From an uncultured Pseudomonadota bacterium (GTDB taxonomy: Bacteria; Pseudomonadota; Alphaproteobacteria; Rs-D84), in the NCBI GenBank assembly GCA_902801125.1, contig CADCGT010000002.1, forward strand, positions 7,157 to 71,156: a stretch of 64,000 bases of DNA. Reading direction: 5' to 3'. This document shows positions 139-44,126 of the stretch, one piece after another; the first letter of the stretch is position 1; each line of letters opens with the position of its first letter. The notes below the pieces were generated by a model. The model did no database searches. It saw nothing but the letters and a program-made list of their open reading frames with translations, and was not told the DNA's origin. Made by a program: the position numbers and the translations under genes.

Positions 139-2745
139 ATGAAATATCGTGGATTGACCGCCGCCGCGGTCGCGCAAAGTCGCGAAAAATATGGCGCAAA
201 CACTATGCCGGAACCACATGCGAAAACCGCATGGGAATTTTTATTGGATGTGTTTCGCGATAAAATAAACATTATTTTGTTGATAATGACGATTATATTC
301 GCGGTCCTTGCGATATTGGGCTTTGGCGAATTGACCGAGGCATTGGGTATCGGGGCGGTCTTGGTTATTGTATGTGTTGTAAATGTTATTACCCACCTGC
401 GCGCGCAGCACAGTACCATTGAACTGCGTCGCCGCGCATCAAAACAGATGTGCAATGTCGTGCGTGCCGGACGCGTGCGCAATATAGACAGCACAGAAAT
501 CGTCGTTGGCGATATAGTTTTAATTTCGGCGGGCGAAACAATCCCGGCCGATGGCTATATCGTGTCGGGACATGTGGAAGTAAATAATTCCGTCCTTAAT
601 GGCGAAAGTGACGAAGTTCATAAATCACCGGTTGCAAATTTCAAGTATAACCGCGATGCCACTGTGACGGCGGATGATTATACCGATGCGAATCATGTCT
701 TTGCGGGAACAACGGTTCATGGCGGCGGGGGCGCAATGATTGTGACGCGCGTTGGCATGGATACCGAAAACGCAAAAATCTTGCGCGCGGTCGGCGATGT
801 CCGCGAAGTAAAAACGACATTACAATTACAACTGGACCGGATTGCGCGTGTAATTGGAAAATTTGGTGCGATATGTGCGATTGTGGTTGCGGCCTGTATG
901 ATAATATTTCACCTGGTCGCGTCCGATGCGCACGGGGTTGGGAACATTGTTTATATTGTTGTGTCGGCAATAACACTGGCATTGACGATTTTTGTTGCCG
1001 CCGTTCCCGAAGGACTGCCGTTTATCATAGAAATCATTACATCCCAAAATGCGCACAAAATGACACGGGCGAACCTGTTGGCAAAAAATCCCCATAAAAT
1101 CCCAGAGGCCGGAAATATACAATTACTCTGTACCGACAAAACCGGCACGATTACATTTGGCCGGATGCAGCCGGTTGCAAATTACCTTGGCGATGGGACA
1201 AATGTCGGGTTTGCGGTCCGGTCGATTGGTGCCACGGCCGAAATTGCGAATAATATCGTCCTTAACGGGCGTGCAATGTTGGATGCAAACGGCAATATAG
1301 TCGGCGGAAACACGACGGAAAGGGCTTTGTTCGGGGCAATGAATTTAACCGCACACCGCATCGCAACCATTCGCCGCGAAAATCATATTGTTGCAAAAAT
1401 TCCGTTCGCCAGTGCGCATAAATTTTCGGCCACAACCGTGCGTGGCCCAAACGGCACGCGAACATATGTTATGGCGGCCCCAGAAATCATATTGGCGCAC
1501 GCGAACCGGTATATTGATACGGACGGTGCGGTTCATTCTATGCGTGGGTCCAAGGTAAAACGTTTAATGGTGTCAAATGCGCGCCGCGCGATGCGTGTAA
1601 TTGCAACCGCGTATTATGATGGCGCAATATCGGGTAATGCCGTGCCGAACAATTTGGTCTTTATCGCGTTGTCCATTATGCGGGACGAAGTGCGCCCCGG
1701 TGTTGCGGATGTTGTTGGCGCAATGCATGAATCGGGTGTTCGTGTTATGATGATAACGGGCGATAATTTGGAAACCGCGCGGGTTATCGCAACGGAATCG
1801 GGTATCATATCAAACGACCAAGACATCGCAATATCGGCCACCGAATTTGATGCTTTGCCGGATGCGCGGGCGCGCCGAATGTTGCCCAAGATATCGGTGA
1901 TTGCGCGTGCAACACCATACACTAAATTGCGCGTGGTTGAATTGGCGCGCATGGATGGAATAAGTATAGGTATGTGTGGCGACGGCACGAACGATGCGCC
2001 GGCACTGCGCGCCGCCGATGTGGGCTTTGCCATGGGCGACAGTACCGATGTATGCAAAGGCGCAAGCGATATAATCATTGTCGATAATAATTTTATATCT
2101 ATCGCGAACAGTATTTTGATGGGGCGCACATTTATGCACAATGTGGTTGGATTTTTGCGGTTTCAATTACCGATAAACTTTATCTTGGTCGCGGTCAGCA
2201 TTCTGTTCCCGATGTTTTTAGGTTTCAATGCGATAATGGCGGTCCAGATTTTGATTATAAACATTATTATCGACAGTTTGAATTCTTTGGCCTTTGGTGG
2301 CGAAGCGGCGCGACCCGAATACATGCGCGAACCCGTACGCGGGAAAAATTCGCCATTGATTACGCGTGAAACATTGCGCGGTGTTATTTGGACAACGGTG
2401 GTGGGCGTGTTCATAGTATCCATTACCACAACGCCGGCGGCAATGCGTTTGTTTGGCAATGCGGACGTGGCGTTGTCGGCCCGTTTCGCATTGATAATTA
2501 TTGTTGCGATGTTAAATGGTTTTTGTGTGCGTGCGCCGGGCTATAATATATTTTCGGGATTGCGTGCGAACCCAATGTTTGTGGCGGTGGCGGCGTTTGT
2601 ATTTGTGGGAACATACCTTTGCGTGACATTTGGTGGCGCGGCATTACACTTGGCACCAATGGGGTGGGAACAATGGTTTGTTGTTGCGGGATTGGGATTA
2701 TGCGTTGTTCCATTAAATATACTTTATAAAAGAATCTTTCGATAA
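139..2745 (+). CDS. P-type cation-transporting ATPase (E1-E2, Ca2+/Mg2+-type)
   Basis: Phosphorylation motif CTDKTGTIT, hinge MITGDN and GDGTNDAPAL, ~10 TM segments. Start moved to the internal ATG at 139 (MKYRGLTAAAV). Confidence 0.85.
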   Translation: MKYRGLTAAAVAQSREKYGANTMPEPHAKTAWEFLLDVFRDKINIILLIMTIIFAVLAILGFGELTEALGIGAVLVIVCVVNVITHLRAQHSTIELRRRASKQMCNVVRAGRVRNIDSTEIVVGDIVLISAGETIPADGYIVSGHVEVNNSVLNGESDEVHKSPVANFKYNRDATVTADDYTDANHVFAGTTVHGGGGAMIVTRVGMDTENAKILRAVGDVREVKTTLQLQLDRIARVIGKFGAICAIVVAACMIIFHLVASDAHGVGNIVYIVVSAITLALTIFVAAVPEGLPFIIEIITSQNAHKMTRANLLAKNPHKIPEAGNIQLLCTDKTGTITFGRMQPVANYLGDGTNVGFAVRSIGATAEIANNIVLNGRAMLDANGNIVGGNTTERALFGAMNLTAHRIATIRRENHIVAKIPFASAHKFSATTVRGPNGTRTYVMAAPEIILAHANRYIDTDGAVHSMRGSKVKRLMVSNARRAMRVIATAYYDGAISGNAVPNNLVFIALSIMRDEVRPGVADVVGAMHESGVRVMMITGDNLETARVIATESGIISNDQDIAISATEFDALPDARARRMLPKISVIARATPYTKLRVVELARMDGISIGMCGDGTNDAPALRAADVGFAMGDSTDVCKGASDIIIVDNNFISIANSILMGRTFMHNVVGFLRFQLPINFILVAVSILFPMFLGFNAIMAVQILIINIIIDSLNSLAFGGEAARPEYMREPVRGKNSPLITRETLRGVIWTTVVGVFIVSITTTPAAMRLFGNADVALSARFALIIIVAMLNGFCVRAPGYNIFSGLRANPMFVAVAAFVFVGTYLCVTFGGAALHLAPMGWEQWFVVAGLGLCVVPLNILYKRIFR

Positions 2746-2780: not shown

Positions 2781-3021
2781 AGCAAATGAATCGGATGGGA
2801 ATCCGTTTCGGGGCTGTAGCAGGCCTATGTGTATCCGGTGCAAAGCATCGTAATCCGTTGCGATTTCCGTGTTTTTGCACCGCAATATTACCCCAATAGT
2901 GGTTGGGGTGCCGGTGGTGTATATATAAATATCATCGGGATCGTTGATACACATGATTTGCTAACACCCCGACCGTCAATTTCCATTGACGGTTGTTTTA
3001 TACCAAAAAAGAGGGAATTCA
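2781..3021 (+). promoter_or_regulatory. Conserved structured 5' leader (copy 1) ending in a hairpin (2972-2993) plus U-rich tract just before the RBS
   Basis: Blocks shared with 35187-35437: GGGAATCCGTTTCGGGGCTGTAGCAGGCC, ACCCC..GGGGTGCCGGTGGT, ATCGGGATC, GATTTGCTAACACCCCGACCGTCA. Terminal hairpin ACCGTCAatttccaTTGACGGT then TTGTTTTAT. Confidence 0.45.
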
Positions 3022-3504
3022 ATGAGCAAAAAATTACTTTTCGCCATAATCGCGACAATTTGCACCACCACCGCATTTGCAGATACCAAAACCGTCACCA
3101 CCAAGGATTATGTGGATACCGCGGACGCATTAAAGCAAGATAAAATAGTCGGACATACACAATACCGGCCCGATTCTGTTATAACAGATACCACAAATGA
3201 TGGCGTGCTGGGTAAACGTTTAACTTTGGGTAGTGATCACTGGCTTACCCCCGAGTTTTGGGCAGCTTATTTGGAAGCTGGGTCACTTACGCAAAATCCA
3301 AATGAAGATGTGCAAGAGATGGTAGAAGATGGAGAATTTACTTATGATGATTTGAGAAAATCGTTAGTCCAGGCAAATGTTTTGGAAATCGCATTATCAA
3401 GACTTACTAGCACAATAAATTTGAAACGTATGACCTGTGCGCGGTATGTTGAAAATGCCGCCCAAACGGCCGAAAATTGCCTGCTGTGGAACGTGGTGCA
3501 ATAA
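3022..3504 (+). CDS. Secreted protein, 'KTVTT-YVD / CLLW' family paralog 1
   Basis: Signal peptide MSKKLLFAIIATICTTTAFA, motif DTKTVTTKDYVDTADALKQDK, C-terminal ENCLLWNVVQ. Paralogous to 35438-35986 and 36094-37566. RBS AAGAGGGAA. Confidence 0.7.
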   Translation: MSKKLLFAIIATICTTTAFADTKTVTTKDYVDTADALKQDKIVGHTQYRPDSVITDTTNDGVLGKRLTLGSDHWLTPEFWAAYLEAGSLTQNPNEDVQEMVEDGEFTYDDLRKSLVQANVLEIALSRLTSTINLKRMTCARYVENAAQTAENCLLWNVVQ

Positions 3505-5560: not shown

Positions 5561-6565
5561 ATGTCAGATAACAAGATTTATTTGTCGGGGATAAAACCCA
5601 CTGGAACCGTCCATTTGGGCAACTATATTGGTATGCTGAGCCAAATGCGCGATATATCGCACGAACACAAAACGGTTATGTTTATTGCGGATTTGCACGC
5701 GTTGAATATTATGCGCGATGCGAATGCTGTGCGTGAACACACATACGAAATCGCCGCGATTATTATGTCTATGGGTTTTAATATGAACAATGTTTTAATG
5801 TTCCGCCAATCGGATGTGCCGGCCGTGTGCGAATTGTCAACAATGCTGACCAATGTCACGCCCAAGGGTTTAATGGATCGCGCCCATTCGTATAAGGCCG
5901 CGGTTGATAAAAACATCTCCGCCGGAAACGATACGGATTTGGGTGTGAATATGGGACTGTACACATATCCTATTTTGATGGCGGCGGATATATTACTGTA
6001 TAATTCCGATATTGTGCCCGTCGGTGCCGACCAAAAACAACATGTGGAATTTGCGCGTGATATTGCGGGACATTTCAATACAATATACGGCAATGTGTTC
6101 CGGTTGCCCGAACCCCAGATTATGCCAGATGCCGGAATTATACCGGGATTGGATGGCCGGAAAATGAGTAAATCTTATGATAACATCATCCCACTTATGG
6201 CGCCAAGTGCCGAATTGAAAAAGCGTATTATGCGCATAATCACCGACAGCAAAACACCCGACGAATCCAAAGACCCGGATGAATCTACGATATATATGCT
6301 TTATCGTCATTTTGCAACCGCGGCGGAATCGGCCGATTTGGCGGAAAAATTCCGCGCCGGCGGTATGGGATATGGCACGGCGAAGACAATCCTGTTTGAA
6401 AAATTGGATTCTGTGTTATCACCAATGCGGGTCCAATATGAATATTTAATGGCGAATAGCAATGAATTGGACGATGCGTTGTCGAACGGTGCGGAAATCG
6501 CGCGCCGTATCGCGGACAAGACCATGACACGCGTGCGCCATGTAATGTTGGGAACAAAAAAATAA
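5561..6565 (+). CDS. trpS: Tryptophan--tRNA ligase
   Basis: GIKPTGTVHLGNYIG (HIGH-type) and KMSKS. Start at the internal ATG 5561. Confidence 0.95.
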   Translation: MSDNKIYLSGIKPTGTVHLGNYIGMLSQMRDISHEHKTVMFIADLHALNIMRDANAVREHTYEIAAIIMSMGFNMNNVLMFRQSDVPAVCELSTMLTNVTPKGLMDRAHSYKAAVDKNISAGNDTDLGVNMGLYTYPILMAADILLYNSDIVPVGADQKQHVEFARDIAGHFNTIYGNVFRLPEPQIMPDAGIIPGLDGRKMSKSYDNIIPLMAPSAELKKRIMRIITDSKTPDESKDPDESTIYMLYRHFATAAESADLAEKFRAGGMGYGTAKTILFEKLDSVLSPMRVQYEYLMANSNELDDALSNGAEIARRIADKTMTRVRHVMLGTKK

Positions 6566-6586
6566 ATAAAAAACAAGGAGAGAGCA

Positions 6587-7315
6587 ATGAACAACAAAAC
6601 AATTGGAATAATCGCATGCGCGTTGTGCGTGTTGGTGTTGGGGTGGGGCGCGGTAAATCGATTGGCCGAACCACGGACAATAAGTGTGAATGGTGAATGT
6701 TTGACATCCGCGCCAAAGGACAGAACCGCAATCACAATTCGGGTCAGTGTCACGGATAAAAGTGCGGCAAAATCTATGAAGGCGGCATCATCCAAGATTG
6801 CAGAAATCAACAAATACCTTAAAACACTGGATGTCCAGGTTCAAACCAGTGAATTTAATTCATACGAAAAAAATGAATGGAATCCAACAACGCACAAGTC
6901 TGATTTTGTGGGCATTGAAACAAATATCGCACTGGATGTTTCCGCGGCCAGTATTGATACCATTGAAACGGTCTTGACACAATTCGCGGGCCAACCAGAT
7001 GTGTTTGTGACAAACCTGCGTATGTTCACATCAAGCGAAACAATGAAACCGATTCTGGAATCGTGCCTTGGGACGGCGGTTGAAAATGCGCGCGCCCGTG
7101 CGGACGCATTGGCCGCGGGCGTGGGTCGCCGTGCGGGTAAAATGTTAGCGGCATCCTATGGAACGGGCGGTTCATACGATGTGCGCCCAACGGCAAACTT
7201 CCGTATGGCAAAAATGGAAATGGCGGCGGTCGCGGATTCTTATGCCGGTGGCGCAATTACCGGTAAAGATACCGAGGTTTCCGTCACCGTTTCCGCAATA
7301 TTCGAAATAAAATAA
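6587..7315 (+). CDS. SIMPL/DUF541-family periplasmic protein (26-kDa periplasmic immunogenic protein-like)
   Basis: Signal peptide and an 'ISVNGE...' beginning typical of SIMPL proteins. RBS AAGGAGAGAG. Confidence 0.55.
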   Translation: MNNKTIGIIACALCVLVLGWGAVNRLAEPRTISVNGECLTSAPKDRTAITIRVSVTDKSAAKSMKAASSKIAEINKYLKTLDVQVQTSEFNSYEKNEWNPTTHKSDFVGIETNIALDVSAASIDTIETVLTQFAGQPDVFVTNLRMFTSSETMKPILESCLGTAVENARARADALAAGVGRRAGKMLAASYGTGGSYDVRPTANFRMAKMEMAAVADSYAGGAITGKDTEVSVTVSAIFEIK

Positions 7316-25760: not shown

Positions 25761-25794
25761 AGTGGCTAGTGCAAGTGGTTAGTGTTAGTGGGGG
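25761..25794 (+). repeat. Tandem TTAGTG-type hexamer repeats (GTGGCTAGTG CAAGTGG TTAGTG TTAGTG GGGG)
   Basis: Direct reading. Same motif at 35128-35150, 37683-37700 and 44053-44069. Confidence 0.6.
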
Positions 25795-34436: not shown

Positions 34437-34874
34437 TTATTCTGCCGCTGCGTCACTGGCCGGGGCTTCTGCGGGTGCTTCGGCTGCGGCTTTGGCGGCT
34501 TCTTCTGCCTTGGCTTTTTCTTCGGCTAACTTGGCCAATTTATCGGCTTTGTCTTTAATTTTCTGTAAAGTTTTTTCGCTTTGCAGGTTTTTCTTGGTCT
34601 GGTTCGGCACAACGCGTTTCGCGACCAATCCGGCGTTGGCAAGGAAACGATACACACGGTCAGACGGCTTTGCGCCCTTGGCCATCCAAGCCTTGATTTC
34701 ATCGATTTTCAAAATAACGCGTTTTTCATTATCGCGTGCCAACATTGGGTCATATTTACCAACGACTTCCAGGACATTACCGGAATTACGCGCCACACGT
34801 GAATCGACCACAACGATGTGGTAATACGGGCGTTTTTTTGCACCATGACGTGCCAAACGAATAACAGTTGCCAT
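34437..34874 (-). CDS. rpsP: 30S ribosomal protein S16 with Ala/Lys-rich C-terminal extension
   Basis: MATVIRLARHGAKKRPYYHIVVVDSRVARNSG... Confidence 0.95.
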   Translation of the reverse strand: MATVIRLARHGAKKRPYYHIVVVDSRVARNSGNVLEVVGKYDPMLARDNEKRVILKIDEIKAWMAKGAKPSDRVYRFLANAGLVAKRVVPNQTKKNLQSEKTLQKIKDKADKLAKLAEEKAKAEEAAKAAAEAPAEAPASDAAAE

Positions 34875-35062
34875 ATTTGCTCCTTTTGGGTTTGTTAAAA
34901 CTGTTTTTTATCCACAAAGAAAACCGCCATCAAGGGTGAAACTCACCGGATGATGTTCCTTGTGCATACCGCACACAGGTTTTATTCAAATGGCAATCTT
35001 TGGGATTTGCGCGTCCATTATGCGCCACAAATATTAAAAAGTCAAGTATTTTCACAAATAAT

Positions 35063-35089
35063 GCGGGGCGAATTCCCCGCACACTAACC
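35063..35089. repeat. GC hairpin GCGGGGC-gaatt-CCCCGC followed by CACTAACC, the same module as at 44078-44108
   Basis: Direct comparison of the two loci. Confidence 0.5.
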
Positions 35090-35127
35090 CATTGTCGCGA
35101 CGGAGCACACAAAATGTGCGTAGACGG

Positions 35128-35150
35128 AACTAACACTAACCACTAACACT
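35128..35150 (-). repeat. Tandem hexamer repeats AACTAAC ACTAAC CACTAAC ACT (reverse complement of TTAGTG repeats)
   Basis: Direct reading. Sits immediately 5' of the leader promoter -35 element. Confidence 0.6.
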
Positions 35151-35156
35151 TTTCCC

Positions 35157-35186
35157 TTGACGCCGAATCGTGTTTTTTGTTAGAAT
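35157..35186 (+). promoter_or_regulatory. sigma70-like promoter TTGACG-N18-TAGAAT (leader copy 2)
   Basis: Aligned with the 2752-2780 copy, including the CCCTTGAC box. Confidence 0.4.
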
Positions 35187-35437
35187 GTGTTTGAACCAAT
35201 GGGAAACCATTCTCGGTTCGGGCTGTCGTAGGCCCACATCTTGGACGGCACGCAATTTTTTTGGGTGTGCCAAATACCCCGCCTGTCGGGGTGCCGATGG
35301 TTATAATGCGCTGTCAAAAGGCCTATCGGAATCAAATTCCAAGATGTGATTTACGAACACCCCGACCGTCATGGATTCCACGACGGTTTATTTATACACA
35401 AAACAATCCCGCACGGGGGGAAGGAGAAAAACAAGCA
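35187..35437 (+). promoter_or_regulatory. Conserved structured 5' leader (copy 2) ending in a hairpin (35365-35387) plus U-rich tract before the RBS
   Basis: Same conserved blocks as 2781-3021. Terminal hairpin ACCGTCatggattccacGACGGT followed by TTTATTTAT. Confidence 0.45.
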
Positions 35438-35986
35438 ATGACAAATCACAAAATTCTATTATTTGGCGCGGTTCTGTCCGCTTTGACAATTGATACATTT
35501 GCGGTGACAAAAACCGTCACGACCCAGGGTTATGTTGATAACGCGGTCGCCACGAAACAGAATAAATTATCGGGTTCATCCGGCTATGCCGTCACATACG
35601 GATCAAGCGCGGGTACAACGGATGAACGGCAAATCGTAACATCACTTGGGTCGGATACGACGGCGACGACATTGCCGACAACGGGTGCGGTTGTGTCGGG
35701 CCTGAACGCGAAACAAAATACATTAAACGGTGCGGCAAACACGGTTATTACATATACCGGCACGGCGGGCGGCACCGGTTCCAAGGGCGTGTACCAGGCA
35801 TCGGGTTCTTACAGTTCCCAGACAAATAGTTTGGCCGAGGCCGGACATGTCAACACGGCGGTTGCGAACGCGTTTAATGAACATTTAACATGCAATACAT
35901 ACGCAACACCCGGGGATACGACCAGTGATTGTTTGCTCTGGAATGTGAACACATTGTCGGGAACATATATGCCGCAAAACCAGTAA
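35438..35986 (+). CDS. Secreted protein, 'KTVTT-YVD / CLLW' family paralog 2
   Basis: Signal peptide MTNHKILLFGAVLSALTIDTFA; AVTKTVTTQGYVDNAVATKQNK; ...SDCLLWNVNTL. RBS GGGGGAAGGAGAAAA. Confidence 0.7.
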   Translation: MTNHKILLFGAVLSALTIDTFAVTKTVTTQGYVDNAVATKQNKLSGSSGYAVTYGSSAGTTDERQIVTSLGSDTTATTLPTTGAVVSGLNAKQNTLNGAANTVITYTGTAGGTGSKGVYQASGSYSSQTNSLAEAGHVNTAVANAFNEHLTCNTYATPGDTTSDCLLWNVNTLSGTYMPQNQ

Positions 35987-36093
35987 GCGTGGCCATGTCA
36001 CCCCGCGGACGCGCGGGGCCCAGTGCGAGCAAAGCGAACACCAGTGTTGGCGCCGGCGTATAAAATGAAAGAGAGAATAAAAGGACAGAGAAT

Positions 36094-37566
36094 ATGAAAC
36101 TATCAAAATACGGTTTTAATGTTGCATTGGTTTTATTATTGGTACCGGGAATCGCCCGTGCAGAAAATCCCGACCTTATGACGCTTATCGGCGCCAGCGG
36201 CGAGGCCGACACATATGCGGCACGTGACAACAATGGGGAGGATACGAACGACAACGCATCAACATACGGATTAAGTTCATCCGACCATAATTCATTTGCG
36301 GTTGATTACGGCAACAGCGGTATCGTACGTGGTCATGGCCGTTGCAGCACGCGTGCGGGCGATTCTGGGACGTGGAATAATGACACATACAATGTAATAT
36401 CCGGTAATTTTGTAGATAGCTTAACCGATGAAACGGGCCAAAGCGGTGCACAATATTGCTATTGCCAATTGGACAGTTATACGGCCTCTGGTGGTTCTGC
36501 CCAGGCTTTGTCTGGCCCGTGGGTGTTCCGCAGTGACGACGAGGACGCGGACACTTGCGCGGACGACTGTGCGCTCGACTGTGCGGATGCCCTGATGTTC
36601 GGCGGCGCGGACGGTCTCGCGTTCCGGGCTGCAATGTTTAATGCCTATGCGCCGGCGGGCGGGGCCAGTGGTGGCAGTGCGGTGACGACACAAACCTATG
36701 TTGATAATAAATTGGCGACAAAACAGGCGCGGATTACCACCACCGGCACAAATAAACTTATGACATACGGTGCATCCACGGGCGCGACCCCGGGTTCGCG
36801 TGATATTGTGACCGCGCTTGGCACATCCACCACCGCAACCACTGTGCCAACGGTTGGCCCAATCGTCACGGCCGTAAATAATAAACAAGACGCGGTCAAC
36901 GGCACAGCGGACTATGTTATGACCGGCACCGGCACGGCCGGCACACTCGGTGAAAAACCGGTCTACAGTGCCAGTGCACAATTGTCGACCGCCCTGGTAA
37001 CCGCCCAGACGATAAATACGGCGGCAATGGACGCGGCCAACAGTGAAATGATGTGTCATTCCTATGTTGCCAACGCATCTCAAACCCCGGAGAATTGCCT
37101 GCTGTGGGAAATAAAACAAAGTATTTCTAAACCGTTGCAATCGTATTGGCAAAATCCGTCGACACCATACACAAGTTCTTGTTATCGTAAGGCATATGGT
37201 AATTATACAGAAGGCGGTATAGCACGTAATGATCAGAATGGTAATTGTAGCAGTGCAACTGTATCGTATCTTGGGGCATTGAACAACAAAAGTGGTAAAT
37301 GGGGCACTGTTTTCCCATATGGTGATATAAGCGGTGTAAGTAAATGTGTTAATTATATTGCCAATCCTGGTATTGCGACAGATGAGCAAATTAATTCGCA
37401 GTCTACGGGCGGGGTTTGTTGGTGCAAGATGCAAAATCCGATAGTTTCAAAATGGGCGATCGGCATGAGTTATGGAAATCTTACCAATTGTAATAAGGTA
37501 TGTGCAGGGACGTGCGCCGCACTTCAACCATCGTATAGAGAAGTTATGTACAGCACAATAGAATAA
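36094..37566 (+). CDS. Secreted protein, 'KTVTT-YVD / CLLW' family paralog 3 with extra N- and C-terminal Cys-rich domains
   Basis: Signal peptide MKLSKYGFNVALVLLLVPGIARA. Internal VTTQTYVDNKLATKQARI...PENCLLWEIKQ domain alignable to paralogs 1 and 2. Confidence 0.7.
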   Translation: MKLSKYGFNVALVLLLVPGIARAENPDLMTLIGASGEADTYAARDNNGEDTNDNASTYGLSSSDHNSFAVDYGNSGIVRGHGRCSTRAGDSGTWNNDTYNVISGNFVDSLTDETGQSGAQYCYCQLDSYTASGGSAQALSGPWVFRSDDEDADTCADDCALDCADALMFGGADGLAFRAAMFNAYAPAGGASGGSAVTTQTYVDNKLATKQARITTTGTNKLMTYGASTGATPGSRDIVTALGTSTTATTVPTVGPIVTAVNNKQDAVNGTADYVMTGTGTAGTLGEKPVYSASAQLSTALVTAQTINTAAMDAANSEMMCHSYVANASQTPENCLLWEIKQSISKPLQSYWQNPSTPYTSSCYRKAYGNYTEGGIARNDQNGNCSSATVSYLGALNNKSGKWGTVFPYGDISGVSKCVNYIANPGIATDEQINSQSTGGVCWCKMQNPIVSKWAIGMSYGNLTNCNKVCAGTCAALQPSYREVMYSTIE

Positions 37567-37651: not shown

Positions 37652-37680
37652 AAAAAGGTTGCCAAACGCAACCTTTTTTA
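37652..37680. terminator. Bidirectional rho-independent terminator between paralog 3 and gdhA
   Basis: AAAAAGGTTGC-caaac-GCAACCTTTTTTA. Confidence 0.65.
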
Positions 37681-37682
37681 AT

Positions 37683-37700
37683 ACTAACACTAATCACTAA
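37683..37700 (-). repeat. Tandem hexamer repeats ACTAAC ACTAAT CACTAA immediately 3' of the gdhA stop
   Basis: Direct reading. Confidence 0.55.
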
Positions 37701-38954
37701 CTAGCACCAGCCGCGCAGTTTCATTGCCGTTGCAACGCGTTTAATGGAATACATATATGCGGCCTCACGCATAGACACATTATATTCACATTTGATTTTA
37801 TAAATCGCGTCAAATGCGGTAATCATCGCATGGCGTTCTTTGTCTTCGACTTCGCTTTCCGGCCAATAATACCCATAGCGATTTTGCACCCATTCAAAGT
37901 ACGAAACCGTCACACCGCCGGCGTTCGCCAAAATATCCGGCACAATCATAACGCCGCGCGATGCCAATATTTCTTCCGCTTCCAGTGTGGTTGGACCATT
38001 CGCACCTTCGACAATCAAATTTGTTTTAATCAATGGCGCGGTGTCCGCGTTGATTGTGTTTTCCATCGCGCACGGCGACAACACATCCACATCCAGGCCC
38101 CAAAACTCATCGGCGGAAATAACCCGTGCGCCCGGGAAATCCTTGATTGACCCCGCGTTTTTGTTTTTGTATTCCATCAACGCGTCAATATCCAACCCCG
38201 CATCATTAAACAGTATTGTATTCCATTCCGCAATCGCGACAATTTTTGCGCCCATATCCGCCGCGCATTTGGCGGTAAAAGACCCAACATTACCGAAACC
38301 TTGAATCGCGATGCGCGCGCCATTTATATCTTTGTTCAATGTCTTTAATGCGGATGCGATTGTAATCGCAATGCCCAATCCCGTTGCGCGCGTGCGCCCC
38401 AACGAACCATTTAATTCAACCGGTTTTCCGGTAAATGTGCCAAACGAATTATCGCCCGAAAGTTTAATATACTCGTCAATCATCCAAGACATAATTTGCC
38501 CGTTGGTGTTGACATCCGGCGCCGGCACATCGCACTTTTCGCCCAAAATCGGGTAAATTGCATCAACATATCCGCGGCACAGCCGTTCCAATTCGCCCGC
38601 CGACAGTGTTTTCGGGTCAACGATAATGCCACCCTTGCCACCACCATAGGGCAGGCCCGTCACGGCGCATTTGAATGTCATCCAAATAGAAAGTGCCGAC
38701 ACTTCGTCGCGTGACACCATCGGGTGAAAACGAATTCCGCCCTTGCTTGGCCCCAATGCGGTATTATGTTGCGCACGGAACCCGGTAAAGGTCTTAATCG
38801 AACCGTCATCCATTTTGACCGGAATTTGCACTTCCACGATGCGTGCCGGATTTTTAAGAATTTCATATACATTGGTTGACAATCCCAACTTATCACACGC
38901 CGATTTAACGCGCGCCTGGGCGGCAACCAAAGGGTTTAAATTTTCAACTGACAT
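37701..38954 (-). CDS. gdhA: NAD(P)-specific glutamate dehydrogenase
   Basis: GPSKGGIRFHP...GLPYGGGKGGI (Glu/Leu/Phe/Val dehydrogenase signature) and a GFGNVG dinucleotide-binding motif. Confidence 0.9.
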   Translation of the reverse strand: MSVENLNPLVAAQARVKSACDKLGLSTNVYEILKNPARIVEVQIPVKMDDGSIKTFTGFRAQHNTALGPSKGGIRFHPMVSRDEVSALSIWMTFKCAVTGLPYGGGKGGIIVDPKTLSAGELERLCRGYVDAIYPILGEKCDVPAPDVNTNGQIMSWMIDEYIKLSGDNSFGTFTGKPVELNGSLGRTRATGLGIAITIASALKTLNKDINGARIAIQGFGNVGSFTAKCAADMGAKIVAIAEWNTILFNDAGLDIDALMEYKNKNAGSIKDFPGARVISADEFWGLDVDVLSPCAMENTINADTAPLIKTNLIVEGANGPTTLEAEEILASRGVMIVPDILANAGGVTVSYFEWVQNRYGYYWPESEVEDKERHAMITAFDAIYKIKCEYNVSMREAAYMYSIKRVATAMKLRGWC

Positions 38955-39046: not shown

Positions 39047-39120
39047 TGGTGCGAGTGAAGGGAATCGAACCCTCGTCTAAAGCTTGGGAAGCTTTCGTTC
39101 TACCATTGTACTACACTCGC
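39047..39120 (-). tRNA. tRNA-Gly (anticodon CCC)
   Basis: Minus-strand cloverleaf GCGAGTG-TA-GTAC-AATGGTA-GAAC-G-AAAGC-TTCCCAA-GCTTT-AGAC-GAGGG-TTCGATT-CCCTT-CACTCGC-A-CCA. Closely resembles E. coli glyU. One A.A mismatch in the D-stem. Confidence 0.85.
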
Positions 39121-43973: not shown

Positions 43974-44052
43974 AATTCACTCCTATTTGCATTTCTTGTA
44001 TGCCAGAAATATAGTTACCCCAAAACCGATTTCAAGACCATAGGAATAAAAA

Positions 44053-44069
44053 TTAGTGGTTAGTGGACA
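44053..44069 (+). repeat. TTAGTG GTTAGTG repeat upstream of the rplY terminator hairpin
   Basis: Direct reading. Inverted partner CACTAACC at 44099-44106. Confidence 0.5.
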
Positions 44070-44097
44070 ACAAAAAAACGCGGGGCAAACGCCCCGC
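44070..44097 (-). terminator. Rho-independent terminator for rplY
   Basis: Minus strand: CGCGGGGC-gttt-GCCCCGCG followed by TTTTTTTGTT. Confidence 0.7.
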
Positions 44098-44126
44098 GCA
44101 CTAACCAATTTATACTGGCCATTATA

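Follow-up and report, generated by a model that had tools for sequence, protein, structure and literature searches.

A structured leader RNA of an undescribed family adjoins a mosaic intergenic repeat upstream of a secreted-protein gene in an uncultured gut alphaproteobacterium

Several described riboswitches and dispersed repeats share features with the locus reported here. As in the c-di-GMP-I class (GEMM-I, RF01051), its leader RNA has a multi-helix core followed by an intrinsic terminator and is present in multiple genomic copies, many of them 5′ of genes for secreted or surface proteins. In the cobalamin (L5-L13), SAM-II and preQ1 riboswitches a hairpin loop pairs with the strand immediately 5′ of the expression platform, as it does in this leader. 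The DNA upstream of the leader promoter recalls the REP/BIME elements of enterobacteria and pseudomonads, which are intergenic, often lie by terminators, and combine imperfect palindromes and conserved linkers into variable mosaics. It also recalls the pneumococcal BOX and neisserial Correia elements, variable-copy modules between genes that are sometimes part of, or abut, promoters or terminators, and the 7-bp promoter repeats of Haemophilus hmw1A and hmw2A, short tandem repeats by the promoters of surface-protein genes. The locus consists of two unrelated things that adjoin each other, an RNA leader and a copy of an intergenic repeat.

The window (the whole 64,000-nucleotide stretch of DNA analysed) is chromosomal DNA of an uncultured rumen or gut alphaproteobacterium. 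An identical copy of the 182-aa protein encoded at 35438-35986 was found on metagenome contigs, and MAGs from the rumen of goats, buffalo and cattle, titled Candidatus Enterousia or Alphaproteobacteria bacterium, encode its relatives. Genomes of Ca. Enterousia (order Rs-D84) are reduced, mostly to <1 Mb (PMC12306168). A blastn search against a phage collection gave no match. The spacer between rpsP, on the minus strand, and the 182-aa gene is 563 nt long and houses hexamer repeats as well as the leader; the interval 35153-35437 starts just 5′ of the -35 box and ends at the base preceding the ATG. Related loci are given L numbers below. The main features around the leader are:

34437-34874, minus strand: rpsP open reading frame (Pfam Ribosomal_S16 was recorded for the identical gene in L001)
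35017-35045, minus strand: divergent rpsP promoter, TTGACT-17-CATAAT, the left limit of the shared intergenic region
35157-35186, plus strand: sigma-70-type promoter of leader and gene, with TTGACG (35157-35162), an 18-nt spacer containing TG, and TAGAAT (35181-35186)
35193-35395, plus strand: leader copy 2, the 5′ untranslated leader of the secreted-protein operon
35408-35418, plus strand: small hairpin CCCG-ca-CGGG, directly 5′ of the Shine-Dalgarno sequence
35420-35426, plus strand: Shine-Dalgarno sequence GAAGGAG, followed by the ATG at 35438
35438-35986, plus strand: regulated gene for a 182-aa signal-peptide protein with a KTVTTQGYVD...KQ motif
36094-37566, plus strand: gene for a 490-aa Cys-rich secreted paralogue, after a 107-nt spacer

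The original prediction described this interval as the second copy of a conserved structured leader with a promoter of its own, which was borne out by a covariance model and by covariation. Metagenome contigs scanned with the conserved 3′ segment TGATTTNNNAACACCCCGACCGTC yielded 37 loci, nearly all of which are complete leaders behind a TTGAC-type promoter, and four GTDB genomes reached by a genome scan with a 14-sequence protein alignment supplied further leaders. Upstream of many of these homologues a (CCC)TTGAC box can be read, with a -10-like TA..AT hexamer after it. The first structure came from a MAFFT alignment of 31 leaders analysed with RNAalifold, and the covariance model was built from that alignment. 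The model matches the window exactly twice, once at 35193-35394 (137 bits, E = 3e-44) and once at the other copy:

2784-3000, plus strand: leader copy 1 (219.6 bits), 5′ of a 160-aa paralogue at 3022-3504, with no hexamer array upstream

The two copies have a modular layout in common, and their sequence likeness is only patchy. The first set of loci gave 44 genuine matches to the model, and later loci gave five more. The roughly 50 homologues, which come from Alphaproteobacteria of rumen and gut (Ca. Enterousia / Rs-D84, genomes <1 Mb), have in common six helices, a loop-to-tail pseudoknot and an intrinsic terminator. In copy 2 these parts are placed as follows:

35193-35357, plus strand: aptamer-like domain of ~165 nt, with P1, P2, and P3 closing a junction of P4, P5 and P6
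35193-35219, plus strand: P1
35220-35235, plus strand: P2
35226-35230 (UCGUA, P2 loop) with 35352-35356 (UACGA, the tail just 3′ of P3), plus strand: pseudoknot
35236-35245 with 35338-35347, plus strand: P3, a long-range helix
35247-35251 with 35267-35271, plus strand: P4, within P3
35277-35281 with 35287-35291, plus strand: P5, within P3
35294-35301 with 35322-35329, plus strand: P6, within P3
35285-35293, plus strand: GUCGGGGUG, the P5 3′ arm plus UG, complementary to 35358-35366 and proposed as the antiterminator strand
35358-35366, plus strand: CACCCCGAC, which repeats the P5 5′ arm and overlaps the first three bases of the terminator stem
35364-35395, plus strand: intrinsic terminator GACCGUC-AUGGAUUCCAC-GACGGUU then UAUUUAU (stem 35364-35388, U-rich tract to 35395)

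Fitted to the model, the alignment has 95.2% of its cells paired, and both sides change in 35 of the 55 pairs; none of 500 shuffles reached the values of the leader, and partners slid out of register were paired in 35-46% of cells. The same structure laid on the plain MAFFT alignment, to which no model had been fitted, is paired in 90.8% of cells with 31 of 55 pairs double-changed, and thus the support is not a product of model fitting. The 5′ UTR therefore holds a covariation-supported structured domain, as a riboswitch does (31-35 of 55 pairs compensatory, 91-95% of cells paired). The sequence of P3 is different in almost every homologue and is still paired in 97.8% of cells. G-U pairs are frequent, which establishes that the transcribed strand is the mRNA strand. 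Folding of the single copy-2 sequence with RNAfold recovers the helices in the minimum free energy structure (-84.5 kcal/mol, z = -5.4).

The loop-to-tail pairing covaries perfectly. Its cells are paired in 98.7% (MAFFT) and 100% (model-fitted) of cases, with three positions fully compensatory (for example CG:18/AU:9/GC:9); the middle three positions correspond to the NNN of the search pattern and covary completely with the loop. Unlike in the cobalamin, SAM-II and preQ1 riboswitches, to which we found no homology, the pseudoknot joins the loop of the 5′ hairpin P2 to a strand ~120 nt downstream, across the whole multi-helix junction. The terminator, which folds alone at -12.7 kcal/mol and ends 43 nt 5′ of the start codon, is conserved across homologues; in L058 its stem is replaced by another complementary pair, CCGCAU.GG/CCAUGCGG. 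The small hairpin at 35408-35418 covaries with its counterpart in L004-L007 (CCCU-gug-AGGG).

No Rfam family matched the leader when the whole window was searched at gathering thresholds, and among the families without a match are c-di-GMP-I/II, T-box, cobalamin, ykkC, raiA, ROOL and GOLLD. The sole Rfam match in the window at these thresholds is a tRNA gene at 39050-39120 (minus strand). Searching both leader copies against Rfam 15 with E values up to 10 gave only chance-level matches of ~14-16 bits to unrelated models. Thus, unlike c-di-GMP-I, the leader has no Rfam match in sequence or structure, and its architecture is that of P1-P6 with a loop-to-tail pseudoknot. In the literature on Enterousia, Rs-D84 and riboswitch candidates we found neither the leader RNA nor the repeats described. 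We conclude that this RNA is truly structured and belongs to a family not yet described.

Two explanations of its conservation that involve no RNA function were considered. A conserved small ORF is unlikely, because leader indels do not come in multiples of three. The leader could also be conserved as a recombination or duplication cassette of a multigene family. It does lie 5′ of many paralogous genes, and its patchy presence among close orthologues suggests modular exchange of upstream regions; homogenisation, however, cannot yield dozens of compensatory double substitutions that keep pairs intact despite divergence. This explanation is already disfavoured, and we give it hardly any credence.

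The leader is probably a riboswitch-like transcription attenuator, as the terminator lies directly 3′ of the conserved multi-helix domain. In the proposed mechanism, the terminator would form by default. Read-through would occur when GUCGGGGUG, the P5 3′ arm, pairs with the downstream repeat CACCCCGAC and strips the base from the terminator stem, and a ligand or factor bound to the conserved core would set the choice between the two states. The exchange of P5 and antiterminator predicts changes of the kind seen in the divergent leader L014 (12.4 bits), in which the P5 5′ arm (CCUCCAACC), the P5 3′ arm (GGUUGGAGG) and the downstream repeat (CCUCCAACC) have all changed together. This three-way covariation comes from one sequence, since all the others were collected with a pattern that fixes CACCCCGACCGTC, and the downstream segment therefore cannot vary in the sample. 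When homologues of the L014 protein were used to look for further L014-like leaders, the loci returned had no leader or a standard one. When the 9-bp antiterminator pairing was forced, the fold lay ~16 kcal/mol above the minimum free energy structure and was topologically knotted with P3. Given this cost and the knot, the switch may work otherwise, for example via the pseudoknot or a protein.

The energetic cost would fit a need for a factor, as in a protein- or RNA-dependent attenuator in place of a small-molecule riboswitch. In the protein-dependent form, the repeated ACCCCGAC segments or the conserved junctions GGGGUGCC / GGAAUC would be bound by a lineage-specific RNA-binding protein for termination or antitermination. 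Each leader carries the motif (A)CCCCGAC twice and the regulon is a single functional class, secreted proteins, both of which would suit such a factor. Against this, the size of the fold (six helices and a pseudoknot) and the strong conservation of its junction nucleotides are more typical of metabolite aptamers than of protein-binding leaders (RAT, ANTAR and PyrR sites), and no candidate protein was identified. We regard factor-dependent attenuation as unlikely, though a serious alternative.

The genes behind the leaders bear on what a riboswitch-like attenuator might sense. Almost every leader is followed by a first ORF for a signal-peptide protein; a (V/I)(T/P)(T/S)xxYVD...KQ motif is present in many of these proteins, and others are rich in Cys. 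When the regulated proteins were searched by profile against Pfam, PHROG and PDB, no relatives were found, with two exceptions: a GT2 glycosyltransferase after one leader and a sub-threshold match to a Listeria-Bacteroides repeat. An AlphaFold2 model of the 182-aa protein from 14 sequences had a pLDDT of 33 and was unusable. The 490-aa gene is probably co-transcribed with the 182-aa gene, because the spacer between them holds no terminator. Its product contains the TTQxYVD...ENCLLW domain of both small proteins, flanked by Cys-rich regions, and a DNA repeat shared by 3445-3489 and 37063-37107 corresponds to this domain of the paralogues.

Extrapolated from two copies in the 64 kb of the window and a further two within 9 kb of L053, leader density would point to tens of copies in a ~0.9 Mb genome. 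The most plausible input is a global signal (for example a second messenger, or a molecule from the host or the environment), because the leader family precedes many surface and secreted proteins in a very small genome.

Three further observations concern this gene family and its surroundings. In L058-L060 a reverse-transcriptase (RVT_1) gene at 6019-6639 lies ~3 kb downstream of a leader-controlled gene. A palindrome, AAAGGTACCTTT, is present in one or two copies around the promoters of leaderless secreted-protein paralogues (L009 2360-2457, L010 2428-2439, L013 2432-2443, L015 2338-2349 and L061 158-169) and absent from the window; it may be an alternative control element for the family. In L054 (38-59) and L055 (26-47), a homopolymer of ~21 T lies immediately 5′ of the promoter of an L014-like leaderless paralogue.

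Upstream of the leader promoter, the hexamers, the GCGGGGC hairpin and the CACTAACC that follows it, all noted in the original prediction, are present at or within a few bases of where they had been placed. The hexamers had been said to abut the -35 box, which is approximately right; the array ends 9 nt before the TTGACG box. The modules are, from left to right:

35063-35080, plus strand: GC-rich hairpin GCGGGG/CCCCGC with loop CGAATT, the first module of a mosaic intergenic repeat
35082-35089, plus strand: CACTAACC, 3′ of the GC-rich hairpin
35090-35128, plus strand: type-A core CATTGTCGCGACGGA-GCACA-caaaa-TGTGC-GTAGACGGA, a weak hairpin with conserved GTCGCG...GACGG flanks
35129-35147, with a partial unit to 35150, plus strand: hexamer array ACTAAC ACTAAC C ACTAAC (AC), at about -64 to -43 from the leader start

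As a lone tandem repeat the array is weak (Tandem Repeats Finder: period 6, 3.5 copies, score 35), and the hairpin of the type-A core in the window does not exceed shuffled sequence in stability. Both the hexamers and the GC-rich hairpin are real and non-random. The window contains three occurrences of ACTAACNACTAAC at up to one mismatch (0.08 expected) and 11 of CACTAAC (2.8 expected); none of 100 shuffles reached either count. The module of hairpin and CACTAACC is also found at 44078-44106 and in L007, L053 and L069.

The hexamers had been proposed to add a layer of protein binding or regulation specific to this leader copy. We found the same arrays at three other intergenic sites in the window and on many related contigs, which argues against that proposal. 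The three sites are:

37683-37701, plus strand: second full array, ACTAAC ACTAAT C ACTAAC, with the same 6+6+1+6 spacing as at 35129-35147
25768-25792, minus strand: ACTAAC array between two divergent promoters
44052-44106, array (44052-44066) on the minus strand: array, terminator hairpin and CACTAACC, which form an extended palindrome (-18.6 kcal/mol, z = -6.4)

The array at 37683-37701 lies in a convergent-gene spacer, between a bidirectional terminator and the stop codon of gdh (minus strand), and at 44078-44106 the hairpin and CACTAACC serve as terminator to a gene on the minus strand. The window contains 14 exact ACTAAC/GTTAGT hexamers, of which 10 lie in its ~9% of non-coding DNA. In 349 kb of related DNA there are ~30 arrays of 2 to 7 units, which follow terminators, precede leader and non-leader promoters, or lie at (often exactly at) the stop codons of convergent genes. 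On the convergent-gene strand, the GTTAGT/ATTAGTG arrays between stop codon and terminator (window 37673-37703 and L018 ~830-870) provide TAG/TGA stops in all three frames.

Nine composite copies in the related DNA have the order [hairpin, often with a T-run] ACTAACC [core] (ACTAAC)n, where the core follows the pattern GTC(G/C)C...stem-loop...GACGG or GTGG. There are three types of core, all flanked by ACTAAC: type A in L007 and L031, type B in L023, L024, L038 and L050, and type C in L023 and L053. L023 carries two cores in tandem, and the type-B core folds at -14.2 kcal/mol. These elements share with REP/BIME their multiple copies in intergenic DNA and their imperfect palindromic units arranged as a mosaic. 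Unlike in REP/BIME, the linkers are tandem direct ACTAAC(C) hexamers, and a GTAG head is present only in the core of the window and L007. Compared with BOX and Correia elements the units are far smaller (6-7 bp, with cores of ~40 bp), and they lack terminal inverted repeats with TA duplication. With regard to MITEs, the flanking hexamer units are direct repeats and no terminal inverted repeats were seen; in L038 both flanks of the core are the identical 13-mer ACTAACCACTTAC, which could be a duplication. The stretch 35063-35150 is a type-A copy of a lineage-specific, REP/BIME-like mosaic intergenic repeat, and its hexamers are an undescribed but ordinary kind of dispersed repeat. This copy would have accumulated between the rpsP promoter and the leader promoter and would not be a dedicated operator.

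The window also carries a second dispersed repeat, GTCAYCCCGC...GCGGGRCCCAGTG.GA.C.AAG.GAACAC, at 35997-36050, between the 182-aa and 490-aa genes, with further copies in L069/L070 (~1090-1150) and L012 (1-60).

Comparison of orthologous loci separated the leader from the array. For each, we give identity to the 182-aa protein, the neighbouring gene, and the state of leader and repeat:

L007: 86% identity; rpsP neighbour; leader; hairpin, core and three units
L069/L070: 79%; rpsP; leader; hairpin and two units, no core, and a different repeat further upstream
L004-L006 and L066: 77-87%; divergent gene, no rpsP (Peptidase_S11 recorded for L066); leader; no ACTAAC array
L062: 91%; rpsP; no leader; no hairpin, core or array
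L063: 81%; Peptidase_S11 gene; no leader

The original prediction had named an array dispensable for expression and absent from orthologous loci as evidence against it, and such absence is the case in L004-L006 and L066, which keep the leader and the gene. An operator specific to this copy does not fit an array that is absent from these four loci and from L062 and reduced in L069/L070. Among the orthologous loci, presence of the array does not track with the leader. The leader itself is patchy among near relatives; L062 and L063 keep the gene without it, and it is thus dispensable in some genomes. L062 (1240-1500) has a plain promoter in an unrelated AT-rich spacer, and L063 is leaderless at 1378-1500. 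Comparison of L069 with the window suggests that the core and the extra hexamer units were inserted into a short array that was already there. In L004 (~2085-2100) and L005 (~2095-2110), two tandem AATAAC units, one mismatch from ACTAAC, lie ~50 nt 5′ of the -35 box; the pair may be due to chance or may be a decayed array.

An array lies within 130 nt of four of the 34 leaders with enough upstream sequence, namely those of the window, its orthologue L007, L018 and L039. All four arrays have the same orientation and end 42-48 nt before the leader start, and three independent leader loci have their array ends at near-equal distances from the -35 box; arrays also lie 2-16 nt 5′ of -35-like boxes of other genes. 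The array could therefore be a functional promoter-proximal element, UP-like or a site for a global DNA-binding protein, that acts on this promoter and others. However, identical arrays have no promoter following them, as at 37683-37701 and at stop codons in L015, L024, L025 and L037, the orthologues noted above have the same leader and promoter without an array, and the 6-7 bp spacing of units is off helical phase. The sequence is unlike the A/T-tract UP consensus, and readings of the array as CtrA, DnaA, UP-element or EcfG-promoter sites were dropped because spacing and sequence presumably do not fit. We consider a promoter-proximal function improbable for the array. A generic promoter-proximal effect, or preferred insertion next to CCCTTGAC-type boxes, is possible.

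Unit number varies from 2 to ~7 across loci and the downstream genes encode secreted or surface proteins, as would be expected if the array were a phase-variable contingency repeat whose unit number tunes surface-protein genes by slipped-strand mispairing. The longest array found, a run of six to seven perfect CACTAA units in L039 (~330-368, minus strand), adjoins the -35 box of the leader promoter on its 5′ side and is a candidate for slippage. The array in the window, in contrast, is imperfect (6+6+1+6) with only three units. It is identical in three independent assemblies that encode the identical protein (L001-L003), and L007 also has three units. Among close relatives, tract length differs only in L069/L070, where the difference is linked to absence of the core. 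Arrays also occur in non-promoter contexts. Unlike the hmw1A and hmw2A repeats, these arrays showed no length variation within populations and are also found away from promoters. Contingency control by the array is thus very improbable.

In combination the results favour, with reasonable though not high confidence, a joint reading in which the leader represents a new attenuator family, with the switch as proposed above, and 35063-35150 is a mosaic repeat copy rather than a dedicated operator. More tentatively, and on balance doubtful, the leader may be a new riboswitch class for a global signal (a second messenger or a host- or rumen-derived metabolite), with tens of copies that control a large share of the secreted and surface proteome, while the ACTAAC arrays and cores would be a new mosaic repeat system that remodels those promoters.

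The hexamers offer a corrective case, in which a dispersed repeat that adjoins a promoter may wrongly be taken for an operator dedicated to it. As a small family of mosaic repeats, they are also markers of intergenic DNA in the lineage. The leader structure, with six helices and a pseudoknot across ~50 sequences, is defined enough for immediate biochemistry. Should it prove to be a riboswitch, it would form a new class whose regulon is unusually large and devoted to one theme, secreted and surface proteins; its host lineage, uncultured, gut-dwelling and genome-reduced, has a biology that is almost unexplored. Control of a large share of the secreted and surface proteome, if true, would operate in symbionts of the gut, Ca. 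Enterousia / Rs-D84, that have few regulators and genomes of <1 Mb. The ligand, once found, would reveal the signal that these symbionts sense in the course of remodelling their surface.
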